IMG/VR virus record: IMGVR_UViG_3300021978_000001
Coordinates: 128,001 to 192,000 of that record
Reading direction: 5' to 3' (one strand)
Source: a virus
Taxonomy: Duplodnaviria > Caudoviricetes
DNA: 64,000 nucleotides
Shown: piece by piece, positions 1,688 to 9,087 of the stretch
Layout: every line of letters starts with the position of its first letter
Position numbering within the stretch: the stretch's first letter is position 1
Translations under genes and position numbers: made by a program
The notes under the pieces: generated by a model
What the model was told of the DNA's origin: nothing
What the model saw: only the letters and a program-made list of their open reading frames with translations
Databases searched by the model: none

Positions 1688-2671
1688 TCAAGGCGTGACG
1701 GGATCTCCGAGGTCTGTTGCCCAGGGATGCAGGTAGCCCCGCAAAATGAACGTGAACACCTCTTCTGGCGCGCCTCCGAGGAACCGCCTACCATAAGGCG
1801 TCAGGAGGTTTGGCCACTCGCGCATGAACCGTTGATCGAAGTTGATGAACTGCCCATAGTCTGGTCCATCCTGTGGGATGACAATCGCAAGAGGCATCCT
1901 ACGCGAGCTGTAATCCCCTGCAATAGGGAAATGCGCATCATCAATGCCTGTGATCGCTCCGAAGAACCCGGGATACTGCTCGCCCTGGTAAGGACCATCC
2001 AGTTTCTCGGGAGCAAAGACCCACTGGTACGTCCTGCTCGCAGAAGGCACCCCGCTCGTGATCACGCCAGGATCGAACGCCGCGACACCTTGTGTTTGCC
2101 AGGTAAACTCGGGCGTCACCGCGAGCGGAGTCCTGGTCAAATCGAAGCAGTTCTCCGAGAACGCCCACATGCTCGGATAAACCGTACCTGAAGAGACCAT
2201 GAAGATCAACTCGGGGTAGTCATCATTCTCGATCAGATACAGGTTCAAGGTACCCGCGCCTGTATCGTAATCGTCGATGGTCTTCATGGGCGTCGAATCG
2301 GTCGGAAAGAACGCGGCATCAGCAGAGGGATCGAGCCCCCCGACAAACGAAGCAGCATATCCTCCGCCGTTGGCGTACCCGAAGCTAAGAGCGCCGTTCC
2401 CTTCGGTGTCATTGGTCACCCGAGCGCTCACCTCGATCTGGTCCGCGTAGCTTTGCTGGTAACCATTCGGAATCGCCACGAGGATCTCGTGAGCCCCTTG
2501 CGTCAACACGAAGTAGTTGTTCTCCGTGTTGCCTGTACCAAACGACTCCAGCGCGGAGACCGTCCATGTGGTGAGGTTCGTTGCAAAGAAGTTTTGCATG
2601 AACGTCCCCTCACCATTGGTGGTACCTGCGCCATACGGATCTCGCGTTGTCGTGTATCCAATACGTGGCAT
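1688..2671 (-). CDS. putative virion structural/tail-associated protein
   Basis: 327 aa, G/T/S/Y-rich beta-type composition, coupled (ATGA-like overlap) to the upstream gene. Confidence 0.55.
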   Translation of the reverse strand: MPRIGYTTTRDPYGAGTTNGEGTFMQNFFATNLTTWTVSALESFGTGNTENNYFVLTQGAHEILVAIPNGYQQSYADQIEVSARVTNDTEGNGALSFGYANGGGYAASFVGGLDPSADAAFFPTDSTPMKTIDDYDTGAGTLNLYLIENDDYPELIFMVSSGTVYPSMWAFSENCFDLTRTPLAVTPEFTWQTQGVAAFDPGVITSGVPSASRTYQWVFAPEKLDGPYQGEQYPGFFGAITGIDDAHFPIAGDYSSRRMPLAIVIPQDGPDYGQFINFDQRFMREWPNLLTPYGRRFLGGAPEEVFTFILRGYLHPWATDLGDPVTP

Positions 2672-3753
2672 CAGGGGAGTCCTGTAGGATCAGGGTAAGG
2701 GAACGACGGTTGATTGAGCGCATAGGGGAAGCAGAGCTGATCGTGGAGCTTGATGAACAAGCCACCATCGAACTGGGTATAGAGCTGACGCTCCGTCGCA
2801 CCCATCACGCGCACCACATCCGAATCCAGGTAACCCTTGTAGTACGTCGCGGAAGCGAGCGTCACGACATCCCAGGGGTAGCGTCCGTCCTCGAAGGGCA
2901 CGTTGAATTGCGTGAAATCCTGGTCGAAGTTGTCTTCCATGAGAAGCACCACACCGCCGTCATCCATCACGTAGTGCGTATCCGCGATAAGAGCAGCCGA
3001 AGTATTAAACCCGATACCAAACGACCCTGTGGTGAAGGTGTCTCCAGCACGATAAGGCACGACCACCTCACCGAGACCCATGATCCCACCGATCACATTC
3101 ACCTCTCCGAGCGACATGTAGGCAACCACGAAAGGCTTCACATCATCGAAGATGTACACCATACGTGAGCCCAAAACCTGGTTCGATGTACCCCCATATG
3201 CACCATCCGCGACGTAGCCATACACCGACCCTGCCGAGATAAACGCTGCGATGCCCGAAACCCATGGGTTTACCGCAGGCGTATCGAGGTCCCCACCAGG
3301 GAGCGAGCCATCAGCGTTCAAGCCTGCGCCATAAGGACTGACCGTGCCCCCTGTGGGGTGATAATGGATCGACACACCACCATCGGTGCCGAAGGTCGTA
3401 CCTCCGTCGATGTTGCGGTAGAAATCAGAGATCGTACCCGAGAACATATCCTCGTGCTCGGTCTCCGAGGTGCTGATCGCATACCCAGGGTAGGTGAACA
3501 ACCAGGCTGGACCCACGCGTGACGAAGGCGCGCCCCCATCCATCAGGAACACGATGAAGCCATATCCCTTATAGTTGGAACGACCCGGCCAACGGAACAC
3601 ATCCGAGACTTGCCAGTTGGTCTGGTTGGTATCAGGATCGAGCACATCACGGAAACGATCACGAATACGCACGACCTCGACGTCTGCGTCCGCATCACTC
3701 GAACAACGGCTGTTCGGGTCCCAAAGTCCAATGTCCACAAGATAACGCGCCAT
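2671..3753 (-). CDS. putative virion structural/tail-associated protein
   Basis: 360 aa, G/D/Y-rich; follows Ig-domain genes. Confidence 0.55.
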   Translation of the reverse strand: MARYLVDIGLWDPNSRCSSDADADVEVVRIRDRFRDVLDPDTNQTNWQVSDVFRWPGRSNYKGYGFIVFLMDGGAPSSRVGPAWLFTYPGYAISTSETEHEDMFSGTISDFYRNIDGGTTFGTDGGVSIHYHPTGGTVSPYGAGLNADGSLPGGDLDTPAVNPWVSGIAAFISAGSVYGYVADGAYGGTSNQVLGSRMVYIFDDVKPFVVAYMSLGEVNVIGGIMGLGEVVVPYRAGDTFTTGSFGIGFNTSAALIADTHYVMDDGGVVLLMEDNFDQDFTQFNVPFEDGRYPWDVVTLASATYYKGYLDSDVVRVMGATERQLYTQFDGGLFIKLHDQLCFPYALNQPSFPYPDPTGLP

Positions 3754-3809: not shown

Positions 3810-4325
3810 TTACGGGATCAACGTTACCGTAAGCTCATCCCGAAGCTCGAACGCGTTCGAGTCTGGAGAACCATCAGGCGTTACCTCCTCCACAGGTGTC
3901 AACACCACCGTATCGCGAGGCGAAAAGAACCTCGGATGGGACAGCGTATCGGTGTTCGCAGGGGTGCTCTCCAGGTACACGATCGGGAGGGAGTTGAACC
4001 CATAAAGCACGTTCAGATCTCCCTGAATCGTGATCGGGCCATCAGGGGAGTTATCCGCGAACAGGTTGAAGTTATCCGCCTTGTTGTCGAGCACCAGAAA
4101 CGAAGCCTCACCATTGACCAGGGTCTTCTGGTTGTCGATCAAGGTAAACGTCCCATCCTCGTCCGCGTCGAACAGGAGATCGAGATCTGCGCTGGTCAGC
4201 TCGACCACGGTCGTGTTGTCATCCGTGATCACGTTCCCGAGCGCATCGAGCGCGCGCACGATCACCGTGAAGGTCTCTCCTACTTGCACCGAGGAGGGCA
4301 CCAGGACTTGAAAGCTGTCAATCAT
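3810..4325 (-). CDS. Ig-like domain protein with conserved C-terminal HPRFF...PDGSPDSNAFELRDELTVT motif
   Basis: N-half aligns with the C-terminus of the 4670 protein; C-half aligns with the 4337 protein. Confidence 0.7.
   Translation of the reverse strand: MIDSFQVLVPSSVQVGETFTVIVRALDALGNVITDDNTTVVELTSADLDLLFDADEDGTFTLIDNQKTLVNGEASFLVLDNKADNFNLFADNSPDGPITIQGDLNVLYGFNSLPIVYLESTPANTDTLSHPRFFSPRDTVVLTPVEEVTPDGSPDSNAFELRDELTVTLIP
3813..3950. repeat. duplicated C-terminal coding module, copy 1 (copy 2 at 4340-4471)
   Basis: Near-identical peptide TLxHPRFFxxRDTVVxTPVxExTPDGSPDSNAFELRDELTVT; 28-nt identical DNA core catcccgaagctcgaacgcgttcgagtc. Confidence 0.85.
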
Positions 4326-4336
4326 GGTCGTGTCTC

Positions 4337-4660
4337 TTAGATGATGGTCACGGTGAGTTCATCCCGAAGCTCGAACGCGTTCGAGTCCGGGGAACCATCA
4401 GGCGTCGCTTCATCGACAGGCGTGAACACCACCGTATCTCTCGCCTCGAAGAACCTTGGGTGGTCGAGCGTCTCGGTGTCGATCGGCGTACTGTCCTCAT
4501 ACCGCAACGCGGCCCCTGCGACTCGCTGGAAGGTCCTGGAGTCTGTGGAGGGGGTACCCCCGGGGGCAACCGCTGCGGTGACCACCAGGTTGCCGTTGGA
4601 GGCATCACGCGCGCGAATCGTTACCTCCCCCTGAACCAATGTCTTTACATTATCAGGCAT
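4337..4660 (-). CDS. second half of a split Ig-like domain plus conserved C-terminal motif
   Basis: In frame with 4670-8494 after TGA-GAG-GTA-GTT; PDNVKTLVQG aligns with IDNQKTLVNG of the 3810 protein. Confidence 0.75.
   Translation of the reverse strand: MPDNVKTLVQGEVTIRARDASNGNLVVTAAVAPGGTPSTDSRTFQRVAGAALRYEDSTPIDTETLDHPRFFEARDTVVFTPVDEATPDGSPDSNAFELRDELTVTII
4340..4471. repeat. duplicated C-terminal coding module, copy 2
   Basis: See copy 1; same 16-bp palindrome CTCGAACGCGTTCGAG. Confidence 0.85.
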
Positions 4661-4669
4661 AACTACCTC

Positions 4670-7600
4670 TCAAGGTTCATCGAAGATGCCGTCATTGTCC
4701 CCATCGAACTCGATGTCATCATCCGAGGTCAGGAGCACCTGCGTCGTATTATCCGTCTTGACCGTCTTCCCGGTCACATCACGCGCCTGCACGCGGACAT
4801 CAAACTCATCCCCCGCCTGAATCCCCTCGGGGGCTGAAAGCTCGAAGTAAGAGACCGGCCCGAGCGCTTCGAGATAATGAGATTGAATCGTCACGGGGTC
4901 GAGCGCGCGGTCATAAATCGCGAGGTTCGCCACCGCGCCCTGCATCCCCTGCCCCACGCCGATCGAGAAGGGAAGCTGGACATCACCTGTGTAGGGCGTC
5001 GAAGCCACGACCTCACTGTCAATGTAAGCGCGCATCCAGGAGCCGTCATACGTGAGCACGATGTGGTAGAACTCTCCGATCTCACGATCAGGCAAGAGCA
5101 AGGTCTTCTGTCCCGTGCCCGTGGTCAAGGTCCACTGATACACCGTCGCATTGTTTGCTACCGTGAGGATGTCCGGGATGATCGCGGTCGCGGTATCAAA
5201 CCTCACGCGCGCCCACAGCTCAAGGGTAAATCCATTTGTGATCAAACCCGCGAGCGCATTGGTCGGTACGCGGACGTACCCCGCATCCACGTTAGCAGCA
5301 TTCTCCAGGTCCTTGGCGAGCGGTCCCAGGATATTGCGTGGTGCGTTCCCGAGGTAGGTGCCGTTGATCTGGAGCGGTCGCACATCATACGCCACCACAC
5401 CGCTCGCCTCGTTGAGCGGGTAGTACACCAACGGGGTATCATCGTAGACAAGCGCGGGATAGAACTGCCCGAAGACGCTCACGGTCACTTGTGAGGTGTC
5501 AGGGTTCGCGAAGGTATCCTCGATCGTATAATCGAACGTCGAGACTCCCAGGAAGGAAGTCGCGGGGGTAAACTGCAAGACGTTGTTTGGCCCTGCCCCC
5601 ACGATCGTGACCGCGCCTTCTGTGGGATTCGGCGCCACGAAACTCACCACCGTGAGGTCATCACCCTCGGGGTCTGTCGCATCTGCCAGGACATCGACCA
5701 CGGTCGCGCGCTCGAAGACGGTAGGCTGAAACACCGCCGCCGCTTGAGGAGGCTGGTTTGCCTCGATCGTCACTGTGACCGTGGCGGTGTCCTTGAGACC
5801 AAACTCATCCGAGATCTCATAGTCGAACGTGTCCACGAAAGGCGTGGGCAACAAGGGGTGCACGTAGGTGATGAAATCGTCGTAGACATCACCCGGGGTA
5901 CCCGCGTTGTTGATCGCGACCGTGCCCCCAAACTGACTCGTAGCATCCGCGTCCGAGATGAAGATCTGATCCCCATCCGGGTCACTGTCATTGACCCTCG
6001 GGTCCACGTTCAAGACCTGACCTTCTGCGACCGTCGCGGCGAAGTTATTCGCCACAGGGCGTTGGTTGGCGCCTACCTGGACACTGACTTGCGCGGACTC
6101 CACCTGGCCATACGAATCACGCGTGGTGCATGTCACGAGGAATGTCCCCACCCCTGTGAATTGATATACTCCAGACGCCGCCGTCGAGGTACCATCACCG
6201 CCAAAGTCCCAGAAGTATTCGTAGGACTTGTCAAAGCCGCTCTGCGCCGTGACCGTCGCAGAATACGAGATCTGCTCCGTGACGGGCAACACGAGGGGCG
6301 TCACCGAGATCGCCAGCTCGTAGCTCACCGCGACCTGAATCGTGTAGTCCCGTTGATTGCCGAAGGTGTCCTCGATCGTATACGAGAACGATGCAATGCC
6401 CACAAAGCCCGGCGAAGGCGTGAAGAGCAACGTATCATCCGTGAGATCACCAGGCGTGCCATTCTCGACGCGCGTAACCGTTCCGCCCGATGCGGGTTGA
6501 GTAAACGACACCAGCGAGATGGCCTCGCCTTCGGGATCACTCGCGAGTGCCAGCGGGTCCACCTCACGCGGTGTATCGAGCGGGGTCGAGACACGAAGGT
6601 TCGCGGCGCTCGGGCCAAAGTTGTTCACCGTGACGGTCACGGTACCTGTGTCAGTGCGCGTCCCGTCTTCGAGCGTGTACGTGAACGAAGTCGTCCCGGC
6701 AAAGCCTACATCCGCCGTGTACGTGATCGTGTTGTCTGCTTCGAGCACGACCGTCCCTTCTCCCACGGGCGGTTGTGTCACCGCTGTCACATCAAGGGGA
6801 TCAGGAAACGGCGTGGTGTCATTGGCGAGGACATTGATGTTGGTTGTCCCCTCGAACGGACATACCGCGTTGTCTGCGATGGCCGCGAACGCTTCCTGTT
6901 GCACGAGGATCGAGATCGACGCAGACGCGAAGAGACCATCCTCATCCTGGACCTGGTAAACGAACGTATCGGTCCCCAGGAAATCCGTGGGAGGAGTATA
7001 CTGCACCTGATTTGCGATAATAACCGCAGAGCCTCCCTGGTCCGTAGGCGTCTGCACATCGGTCAAGGTGAGCAGTTGGCTTGGGGGATCGGGGCGGTCA
7101 TTGGCTTGCGGAGAAAACGTCAGTGGCGTATTCGGCTCTGTCGTTCTGAAATCATTGACGGCCTGGATAGGCTGCTTGGGCGCGACCACCACCGTGACCA
7201 GAGCTTCATCCGTGGCTCCCGCGCCGTTGGTGATCTCGTAGGTGAAGGTGTCTTCGGCATCCTGAAAGTCATCGTCAGGCGTGTAGAGAAACGTCGCTGC
7301 CTCTCCTGCACCCTGAATCACCACAGTACCATTCGCAGGCTGCGTGAACGCACTGATCGACCCTGAGCCCCCAGGAGGGAAGCTGTCGTTGGCCAGCACT
7401 GTCAACGTTCGTGGGGTCTGGTAGGTCGTGGTATACAGATCATTGAACGCCACGAGATCCGGCACAGGGTCCACATTCACCGTCGCGAACGGCGTCGAGC
7501 GATTCGCAGTTCCATCAGTCACGAAGCCCACCGGCTGGAAGATGCCAACCTCGGTGTACTGATAGGTCGTACTGTTCGCGAGCTGCGGGCCAATCGAGGG

Positions 7601-8494
7601 GATGAACCCATCCGGGCTGAACGAATACTGGAGCGTGTCGTTATCGGGATCGGTGGCCGTGATCTCGAAGGTCACCGTCTCACCCTCGAAGATATTCAGG
7701 GTGCTCGACGGGCCGATGCCATTGGCGGTCGCGTTCTGAATCTCGGGGGGACGATTGTTGTTGGTGTTGAACGTCGAGCGCTGCTCACCATCAACCTCCA
7801 CGCCGTCCCCATACAATGCCACCTCGTCGATCAAACCATCGAAGCGCTGTGCGTTGTTGTACGCACCAACCTGAACATTCTCTGTACCGAGCGCGGGCGC
7901 AGGTGCGTTCGCGACCACAACCCCTTGCTCCCCGTTCAAGAAGACCGCGTTGGTCGTACCATCCCAGTTCCCCAGGACGTAGTAGTACGTGTTGGGCGTG
8001 ATCACCGAGGGACTGAAGGCGAGCTTGGCAGCAGCGGAGTCATTGTACCAGAATTTGATGCGACCATCAGGCAACAGGGAGAGCTGGAAGTTGTTAGCGC
8101 CCACGTTGTCTCCGCGCGACACCAACGTCTCCTCAGAGACGGGGAGCGCATCGACCTTGATCCAACATTCGACCGCGAATTGACTGAATGCCTGGTTGAG
8201 TGCGGCATTCGCGGTCACGTTAACAAAGCCATCGACACCATCGAGTTCGATCGCCGTGTCGAGCTGATCATTGGTCAGCGGGCTCTCGGCTTCGAGCGTG
8301 ATCCCTTGAGCAGTGAAGGTTCCGTTCGTTCCGTTCGGGGAGGAATCGAACGCCGTCAGCCCCTCAGTTTCCTGGAAACGAAGGTACATCAACGGATTGT
8401 CCCGCAACACAAAGGACGAGTAACGCAACCCACCCGGAACGAGTCGGTTGAAGTCAAACACCAGGTTGGGGTTCAGGTTGTTGAAATCGGCCAT
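4670..8494 (-). CDS. large adhesin/tail-fibre-like protein: LamG - cadherin-like/Ig (Big_9-type) repeats - PKD - LamG - half Ig
   Basis: Two LamG-type regions (F(S/T)vE.W, HIVLTYDG, FDGLIDEVALY), repeated A.ND...V..LAND...D...TFTYTI.D units, PKD WDFGGDG; start placed at MADFNN. Confidence 0.8.
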   Translation of the reverse strand: MADFNNLNPNLVFDFNRLVPGGLRYSSFVLRDNPLMYLRFQETEGLTAFDSSPNGTNGTFTAQGITLEAESPLTNDQLDTAIELDGVDGFVNVTANAALNQAFSQFAVECWIKVDALPVSEETLVSRGDNVGANNFQLSLLPDGRIKFWYNDSAAAKLAFSPSVITPNTYYYVLGNWDGTTNAVFLNGEQGVVVANAPAPALGTENVQVGAYNNAQRFDGLIDEVALYGDGVEVDGEQRSTFNTNNNRPPEIQNATANGIGPSSTLNIFEGETVTFEITATDPDNDTLQYSFSPDGFIPSIGPQLANSTTYQYTEVGIFQPVGFVTDGTANRSTPFATVNVDPVPDLVAFNDLYTTTYQTPRTLTVLANDSFPPGGSGSISAFTQPANGTVVIQGAGEAATFLYTPDDDFQDAEDTFTYEITNGAGATDEALVTVVVAPKQPIQAVNDFRTTEPNTPLTFSPQANDRPDPPSQLLTLTDVQTPTDQGGSAVIIANQVQYTPPTDFLGTDTFVYQVQDEDGLFASASISILVQQEAFAAIADNAVCPFEGTTNINVLANDTTPFPDPLDVTAVTQPPVGEGTVVLEADNTITYTADVGFAGTTSFTYTLEDGTRTDTGTVTVTVNNFGPSAANLRVSTPLDTPREVDPLALASDPEGEAISLVSFTQPASGGTVTRVENGTPGDLTDDTLLFTPSPGFVGIASFSYTIEDTFGNQRDYTIQVAVSYELAISVTPLVLPVTEQISYSATVTAQSGFDKSYEYFWDFGGDGTSTAASGVYQFTGVGTFLVTCTTRDSYGQVESAQVSVQVGANQRPVANNFAATVAEGQVLNVDPRVNDSDPDGDQIFISDADATSQFGGTVAINNAGTPGDVYDDFITYVHPLLPTPFVDTFDYEISDEFGLKDTATVTVTIEANQPPQAAAVFQPTVFERATVVDVLADATDPEGDDLTVVSFVAPNPTEGAVTIVGAGPNNVLQFTPATSFLGVSTFDYTIEDTFANPDTSQVTVSVFGQFYPALVYDDTPLVYYPLNEASGVVAYDVRPLQINGTYLGNAPRNILGPLAKDLENAANVDAGYVRVPTNALAGLITNGFTLELWARVRFDTATAIIPDILTVANNATVYQWTLTTGTGQKTLLLPDREIGEFYHIVLTYDGSWMRAYIDSEVVASTPYTGDVQLPFSIGVGQGMQGAVANLAIYDRALDPVTIQSHYLEALGPVSYFELSAPEGIQAGDEFDVRVQARDVTGKTVKTDNTTQVLLTSDDDIEFDGDNDGIFDEP

Positions 8495-8519
8495 GGCACC
8501 ATCTCGGGTGGAAAGGGTC

Positions 8520-9029
8520 TCACGCCCCTGTGAATATAGATGCACTATGGAGCGCGAGCACTACCGAAGCGAGGACAATCGAGAAGCCCATGAGCCGGAA
8601 CCACCACACTGACCAACCAAGCGTCTCCGAGGCTCGCATGAGGTCTGACCGAGGGGTGATAGCAATAGAGTTCGTGATCATATCCACCACACCACCCCCC
8701 ATAAGCACGAGCCACAACAAGAGCAGGTAACCCTGCAACCCGAGCACAACACCCACCGGCAAGAGCACACAAGCAAGGAGGCTCGGAAGGCGTGGTGCGC
8801 ACAGGATCGCGACGCGTTGCCACTTCGTGGGTGGGCGGATCATGTAGTAGCGCGTATGCGCCCACTGGAACCCGCCAGGGATACGGCGAGGGCGCAAGTC
8901 AATCGTGTAATGCACCACACCGACCAGACGGTCTGCGGTCCACACATGCGAATACTCGTGCACGAAAGCCCACAACAAGTAGACCAACGGTGCGAGATAG
9001 AAAAGATGCAAGAGAAGCCAGGGGGACAT
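8520..9029 (-). CDS. membrane zinc metalloprotease-like protein (M50/zincin-like)
   Basis: HEYSH motif in a TM helix, several hydrophobic segments, later D-containing motif (GVVDM..SDL); SD AGGAGG. Confidence 0.6.
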   Translation of the reverse strand: MSPWLLLHLFYLAPLVYLLWAFVHEYSHVWTADRLVGVVHYTIDLRPRRIPGGFQWAHTRYYMIRPPTKWQRVAILCAPRLPSLLACVLLPVGVVLGLQGYLLLLWLVLMGGGVVDMITNSIAITPRSDLMRASETLGWSVWWFRLMGFSIVLASVVLALHSASIFTGA

Positions 9030-9087
9030 ACGCGCCTCCTTGTAAGGTCGTCCATAGGACAAGGTTTACAAGGAGGCTATGCGAGAG

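Follow-up and report, generated by a model that had tools for sequence, protein, structure and literature searches.

An Ig-like domain divided between two adjacent genes of a large phage: a candidate joint between an adhesin and the protein encoded next to it

If a phage gene stops in the middle of an immunoglobulin-like (Ig-like) domain and the rest of that domain is encoded a few bases further on, is the stop read through, or do two proteins come together to make one fold? The locus that raises this question lies in a stretch of 64,000 nucleotides (nt), referred to below as the window, which covers positions 128,001-192,000 of a 437,490-bp virus record (IMGVR_UViG_3300021978_000001) with direct terminal repeats, rated as complete by CheckV. 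The genome has a GC content of 57% and 33 tRNA genes, and genes for Lon protease and topoisomerase II are present. Here a gene for an adhesin-like protein ends part-way through an Ig-like domain, and a small open reading frame (ORF) just past its stop codes for the remainder. We think it fairly probable that the two are separately translated proteins which dock by rebuilding the domain, rather than a single read-through product. In this part of the window every gene is encoded on the minus strand; the features at the junction are as follows.

4670..8494, minus strand: adhesin-like protein of 1274 amino acids (aa), probable start at ATG 8494, with half an Ig-like domain at its C-terminus
4673..4858, minus strand: first half of the split Ig-like domain, ~62 aa, strands 1-4, delimited by a profile match and by the strands of an AlphaFold2 model; ends in an invariant FDxDxDG loop
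4661..4672, minus strand: junction, consisting of TGA (4672-4670) and the 9-nt spacer GAGGTAGTT (4669-4661), with a GAGG Shine-Dalgarno sequence 5 nt before the ATG
4337..4660, minus strand: 107-aa protein; residues 1 to ~44 are the second Ig half (strands 5-8), residues ~45-107 a conserved tail
3810..4325, minus strand: intact 171-aa paralog with the whole Ig-like domain and the same tail (homologues of 161-172 aa), starting 11 bases past the 107-aa ORF

The adhesin ends in ...FDGDNDGIFDEP-TGA, its last codons being GAT GAA CCT. The ATG at 4660-4658 is in the same frame and is separated from the stop by three sense codons (GAG GTA GTT). An earlier note on this DNA had pointed to this arrangement, a TGA followed three codons on by an in-frame ATG that opens the 107-aa ORF, and the junction sequence bears it out. 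The note's further claim, that one domain is cut in two relative to the continuous neighbouring paralog, also holds: the read-through translation aligns with the 171-aa paralog end to end (175 columns, 47% identity, E 3e-46), with 6 surplus residues at the junction, and the two pieces cover a profile of the intact domain in a complementary manner (see below). The split copy and the intact paralog are the only two copies of the domain in this genome.

The cut in homologous adhesins and related loci

With the C-terminal 252 residues of the adhesin as the query, a search yielded ten full-length homologues, 48-96% identical to it overall and encoded on contigs of up to 397 kb. All ten end at ...FDxDxDGx[FY] plus one to three further residues, the stop point being fixed within two residues, so the stop, which the earlier note had wished to see checked in homologues, is not confined to one assembly. 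The end of the adhesin is identical in one of these proteins (P0010) and homologous in the nine others. In most comparisons the half-domain is at least as well conserved as the rest of the adhesin, and the terminal loop shows little or no variation at its F, its three D and its G. The 107-aa ORF is known in three sequence variants, each of 107 aa, on five independently assembled contigs from different sources.

Other collections added little. Neither a blastn comparison of the locus with GenBank phages nor a scan of IMG/VR with the 171-aa protein gave a match; a scan of IMG/VR with the adhesin alignments returned one contig only, which is the same phage as L002 (below) and ends just past the junction, and a scan of GTDB genomes matched nothing except an unrelated LamG in a Myxococcales metagenome-assembled genome.

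A profile of 168 positions, built from 11 intact paralogs, locates the cut within the domain. Its positions 2-62 match the extreme C-termini of the adhesin homologues that were scored (P0010-P0020; E 1e-12 to 3e-21), from which the adhesin of the window can be judged as well, differing little from P0010. The downstream proteins of the window and of two relatives, L002 and L003, are matched from position 63 or 64 onwards, beginning at their residue 1 or 2; the 107-aa protein of the window covers positions 64-167 from its residue 2. Since the coverage of the adhesin ends and that of the downstream proteins are complementary, the cut falls at the same structural point in every lineage. By these alignments, the complementary coverage taken together with the match to the paralog is far beyond chance. 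The comparison across lineages also implies that the split is older than the divergence of these phages and that both halves are still under selection. A freshly inserted cassette, as the earlier note had pictured it, is thus not borne out, as the split is conserved in ten homologues and predates the divergence.

The junctions of the three lineages read as follows.

Window (437-kb phage): ...DEP TGA gaggtagtt ATG; spacer 9 nt; frame 0; downstream protein of 107 aa, MPDNVKTL...
L002 (366-kb contig): ...GEV TGA g ATG; spacer 1 nt; frame +1; downstream protein of ~330 aa, MADDVKTLTGG...
L003 (10-kb contig): ...YGS TAA tt ATG; spacer 2 nt; frame +2; downstream protein of 1016 aa with a LamG domain, MADNSKNLTKGE...

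An ATG is kept at the cut in all three lineages, 1-9 nt past the stop, while the stop codon, the spacer and the frame all vary. A Shine-Dalgarno-like run is clear in the window (GAGG, 5 bases before the ATG) and in L002 (GGAGAGG, 6 bases before the ATG), with none obvious in L003. L002 is identical to the IMG/VR contig L001/L006 over the shared junction. The second halves of the relatives show 46% and 34% identity to that of the window, and the match between L002 and L003 is not significant. Because the relatives have spacers of 1-2 nt and their second genes lie in the +1 and +2 frames, the in-frame layout is confined to the lineage of the window, and read-through is not a conserved mechanism. 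The 18-nt insert of which the earlier note had spoken holds for this lineage, which has the 6 surplus residues, but it does not extend to the relatives with their spacers of one or two nucleotides, L003 having no net extra residues compared with its own paralog. For annotation, the lesson is that a phage fibre gene may stop inside a domain without this being an error, a pseudogene or a recoding site.

A proposed domain from two chains, and the alternatives

The read-through sequence, its stop replaced by W, was modelled with AlphaFold2 as a single chain, with 13 intact paralogs in the alignment. The model is an eight-strand Ig-like sandwich over residues 1-110, with a predicted local distance difference test score (pLDDT) of ~80-90. 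Strands 1-4, supplied by the adhesin, span residues 4-8, 18-26, 40-45 and 49-52; strands 5-8, supplied by the 107-aa protein, span model residues 71-73, 78-85, 91-98 and 103-110. The stop lies between strands 4 and 5, in a loop with pLDDT ~68, and the 60-residue tail is modelled without confidence. Going by the usual Ig topology, not by coordinates, a cut into four and four strands would be expected to leave both sheets made from both chains. Foldseek searches with the model returned generic Ig-like sandwiches from the PDB (GH2 Ig domains, SbsC and the phage Chi neck protein; E ~2e-4) and, among viral models, several Big-1 proteins, the likeness to Big-1 being at the level of the fold only. 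No Pfam model matches the domain in the 171- and 107-aa proteins or in relatives with 16-17 repeats, and none of them scored above the cut-off for Big_1 or another named bacterial Ig family. The same Ig-like domain is the repeat unit, in 16-19 copies, of two giant metagenomic proteins (P0030 and P0031, of 2236 and 2157 aa), and the repeat family to which it belongs appears to be unnamed.

We suggest that two neighbouring and tightly coupled cistrons give the adhesin and its downstream neighbour as separate chains, and that a single Ig-like beta-sandwich of eight strands would receive four from each. The half-domains would fold together and tie the adhesin non-covalently to the carrier of the second half, and neighbouring translation of both halves on one mRNA may help the assembly. 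We infer both that the halves associate physically and that the resulting complex is a surface fibre of the virion. The partner would be minimal in this phage, where it comprises a half domain and a tail in 107 aa, and larger in the relatives (~330 or 1016 aa), the split domain acting as a plug-and-socket joint for exchangeable modules. The sequences themselves establish that the domain is cut and the cut conserved, that the two pieces cover the profile in a complementary manner, that each gene has its own start codon, and that selection acts on both halves. The inter-protein strand complementation that the earlier note had offered as one of two explanations finds support in this comparison, in which the cut is placed within two residues in ten homologues and the missing half comes next in three of three lineages, with both halves under selection. 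If the halves do reassemble, two polypeptides would share one small domain half-and-half as a natural connector, across a clade of 350-440-kb phages. It would allow different binding modules to be hung on one giant adhesin, and it would explain the modularity of very large phage surface proteins.

The DxDxDG loop before the cut presumably resembles a calcium-binding loop, and the third residue of the partner (M-[AP]-D-[ND]-x-K), a conserved Asp, sits where the last ligand would be in the intact paralog. An extended version of the proposal, which we put forward tentatively and regard as unlikely to hold in full, is that huge marine phages have in the half-and-half split Ig-like domain a conserved connector that assembles by itself. 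The DxDxDG loop and the Asp of the partner would form a calcium site across the chains, docking would be metal-dependent and also co-translational, since the end of the adhesin and the beginning of its partner would be made next to each other on one mRNA, and the socket would take cargo of 107, 330 or 1016 aa.

Several observations weigh against docking of the two halves. The homologue P0020 (1501 aa) keeps, in its residues 1230-1501, the first Ig half and then runs straight into a LamG-like domain of ~220 aa; this is the main internal evidence against obligatory pairing, and the first half may not always need this partner. Junction DNA comes from three lineages only. The sole structural model is of the single read-through chain, not of a two-chain complex, and it depends on the intact paralogs in the alignment, a single-sequence control (pLDDT 40) being uninformative either way. 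None of the proteins of the operon has a PHROG match that ties the operon to the virion, and a Baseplate_J gene lies ~100 kb away; the only structural hint is a weak match of the LamG part of the L003 partner to a PHROG annotated 'virion structural protein', and the genome gave no match to the Phage_sheath_1 family. Finally, because phage Ig-like extensions are appended by -1 or +1 shifts regardless of frame (PMC5009743), differing frames alone do not exclude recoding.

The alternative that survives best, improbable as we take it to be, is that the halves no longer cooperate. The split would then be an old fission, after which the half-domain of the adhesin took on some other role (e.g. self-association, or binding of another partner) and the downstream protein acts alone by means of its tail. 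P0020, with a first half and no second half in the same chain, fits this explanation, and so does the far greater divergence of the second halves compared with the first. However, a lone half-sandwich of four strands would have its hydrophobic core exposed, the position of the cut varies by no more than two residues across deep divergence, and both halves, adjacent in all three loci, have kept the profile of the intact domain.

Programmed read-through of the UGA, in this lineage only or besides docking, has in our view still lower odds. It would produce a 1385-aa fusion with a covalently whole domain, and thus long and short forms of the adhesin. The stop and the ATG are indeed in frame with three sense codons between them, the AlphaFold2 model of the product shows a complete domain that accommodates the extra residues in a loop, and in E. 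coli termination is slowed by a C-terminal Glu-Pro before the stop, as found here. Chance alone would put the ATG in frame in one case out of three, however, and the three lineages between them use frames 0, +1 and +2. The stop of L003 is TAA, and in the window the G after TGA does not make a leaky context. No tRNA with a TCA anticodon, which would read UGA, occurs among the 33 tRNAs of the genome; the sole suppressor, a tRNA with a CTA anticodon (genome positions 120038-120110, outside the window), reads UAG (amber). Long ORFs of the genome end in TGA more often than in any other stop, the RNA fold at the junction is not unusual (z -0.24), and the downstream gene has a Shine-Dalgarno sequence and an ATG of its own. 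Read-through giving long and short fibre forms, the other explanation of the earlier note, is therefore not supported, with relatives that go on in the +1 or +2 frame after TGA or TAA, an ATG that is kept, and neither an opal suppressor tRNA nor a slippery heptamer nor an RNA fold to promote it. Low-level read-through of the UGA may nevertheless give a covalently whole domain in this one lineage.

Fusion of the two genes in the relatives by a +1 or -1 frameshift strikes us as very improbable. The frame of the second gene is open upstream of its ATG for 21 codons in L002 and for 8 in L003, and in L002 the GGAGAGG just before GTT TGA loosely recalls the +1 site of prfB. Against this, the overlaps of 59 nt (L002) and 19 nt (L003), screened for the canonical motif only, contain no X_XXY_YYZ heptamer; re-pairing from GUU to UUU would be poor; and the Shine-Dalgarno-like run of L002 lies at normal spacing for the downstream ATG. 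Nor would an ATG conserved exactly at the domain cut be expected if the product were made by frameshifting only.

A sequencing or assembly error or a fresh pseudogene, suggested only by the oddity of a mid-domain stop, deserves almost no credence, and assembly error and recent pseudogenisation are excluded because ten homologues stop at the same point and the 107-aa variants stand on five contigs.

Three other candidates were rejected. A genetic code with TGA recoded is ruled out by TGA being the commonest stop, by the TAA of L003 at the same place, and by Lon and GyrB-like genes that are intact under table 11. Selenocysteine was dropped in view of relatives with TAA or other frames. For a split intein there is no room: the junction has 6 surplus residues relative to the intact paralog, and intein halves need >100 aa in total.

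The adhesin, its neighbours and the shared tail

In the ORF listing, the longest version of the adhesin (4670..8545) runs from GTG 8545 and overlaps the upstream gene. All adhesin homologues have the N-terminus MADFNNLNPN and lengths of 1239-1279 aa; because they all begin at the equivalent ATG, the start of the adhesin is taken to be ATG 8494, and the GTG call is probably wrong. Pfam recognises two LamG (Laminin_G_3), five or six Big_9/cadherin-like and one PKD domain in the protein. Directly upstream of the adhesin, both in the window (8520-9062, minus strand; HEYSH) and in L002 (9462-9956, plus strand; HEHSH), lies a gene for a small multi-pass membrane protein with an HExxH motif. In the window the protein has no Pfam or PHROG match; it may be a metalloprotease-like membrane protein with a link to the operon.

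Downstream, the order of genes is shared with the relatives: the intact paralog (169-172 aa) and then the 360-aa protein follow in both of them as in the window. A protein of 325-327 aa is present in L002 too, and the L003 contig ends before that position. These features are located as follows.

L002 14829-15338 and L003 7330-7848: intact paralog in the relatives, at the same position as in the window
2671..3753, minus strand: conserved 360-aa protein, syntenic in L002 and L003
1688..2671, minus strand: conserved 327-aa protein, syntenic in L002

Searches of Pfam and PHROGs gave no match for the 107-, 171-, 360-, 327-, 180-, 98- and 166-aa proteins, and in the ESM Atlas the 360-aa protein met only viral hypothetical clusters.

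The tail that follows the Ig-like domain (H-P-R-F-F..R-D..., ending in E-L-R-D-x-L-x-V-T) is common to the second-half protein and the intact paralog. The shared C-terminal motif, through which the earlier note had supposed that the adhesin might dock onto the virion, is real, and it is homogenised within a genome, as these tracts illustrate.

4347..4479 versus 3823..3955, minus strand: tail tract of the window, 133 nt, 80% DNA identity (blastn)
L003 4429-4575 versus 7671-7817: tail tract of the 1016-aa gene and the intact paralog, 147 nt, 100% identity

In L002, blastn found no DNA similarity between the tail tracts. Homogenisation of the tail may point to gene conversion or to a common binding partner, and the identical tract of L003 would indicate that gene conversion there was recent. 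Since proteins of the intact type also bear long LamG cargo (P0037, 623 aa; P0094, 1084 aa), the Ig-plus-tail unit looks like an adapter that carries cargo in whole or split form. The 1016-aa partner of L003 (4274-7324) contains further weak Ig-like matches at residues ~357-455 and 602-681 (27% identity; E 2e-4 and 9e-3).

Comparison with known systems

In chaperone-usher pili (Fim, Pap, Caf1), the one missing G strand comes from the N-terminal extension of a neighbouring subunit, a periplasmic chaperone and an usher are needed, and the subunits polymerise. The docking proposed here would resemble them in that an Ig-like fold is completed by strands of a neighbour to give a stable non-covalent joint. 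It would differ in that four strands are donated, the cut lying between strands 4 and 5 of 8, and there is no sign of polymerisation; no signal peptides were seen, by eye, at the N-termini of the proteins. SpyTag/SpyCatcher, derived from CnaB2, is a man-made split Ig-like domain whose fragments reassemble spontaneously and are sealed by an isopeptide bond. It likewise uses fragments of an Ig-like domain as a connector between proteins, with the difference that it is engineered and isopeptide-bonded, whereas no isopeptide triad was noticed here, where none was tested for; the halves described here, if they do dock, might provide another compact, genetically encodable docking pair.

Phage Ig domains appended by frameshifting (Fraser et al. 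2006, reviewed in PMC5009743) share with this locus a C-terminal Ig-like domain across a stop codon or frame boundary. There, the Ig domain is encoded entirely beyond the shift site and lacks its own start codon, whereas at this locus the boundary runs through the middle of the domain and an ATG stands at the cut in every lineage.

The closest parallel we found is in the baseplate tripod of phage Tuc2009, where the C-terminal sandwich of BppA (domain 2) has one sheet completed by a hairpin of 25 residues from the C-terminus of BppU, the composite resembling a titin Ig domain (Legrand et al. 2016, PMC4742702). In both cases one protein ends in strands that complete (in Tuc2009) or would complete (here) a beta-sandwich of another chain, the composite is Ig-like in Tuc2009 and would be so here, and the partner can bring cargo, which in Tuc2009 is a carbohydrate-binding module. 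In Tuc2009, however, two strands are inserted into a nearly whole C-terminal domain, whereas the present locus would combine four strands with four, the C-terminus of one protein with the N-terminus of the next one encoded. The two systems have no sequence relationship, and the complex in our phage is proposed from sequence and a single-chain model. We found no direct report in the literature of a naturally split Ig domain in phages; if the proposal is correct, this locus would be a second and more extreme case beside Tuc2009, the single solved phage example. By analogy, the joint would follow the same principle as that of Tuc2009, but half-and-half, between the products of neighbouring cistrons and with unrelated sequences.

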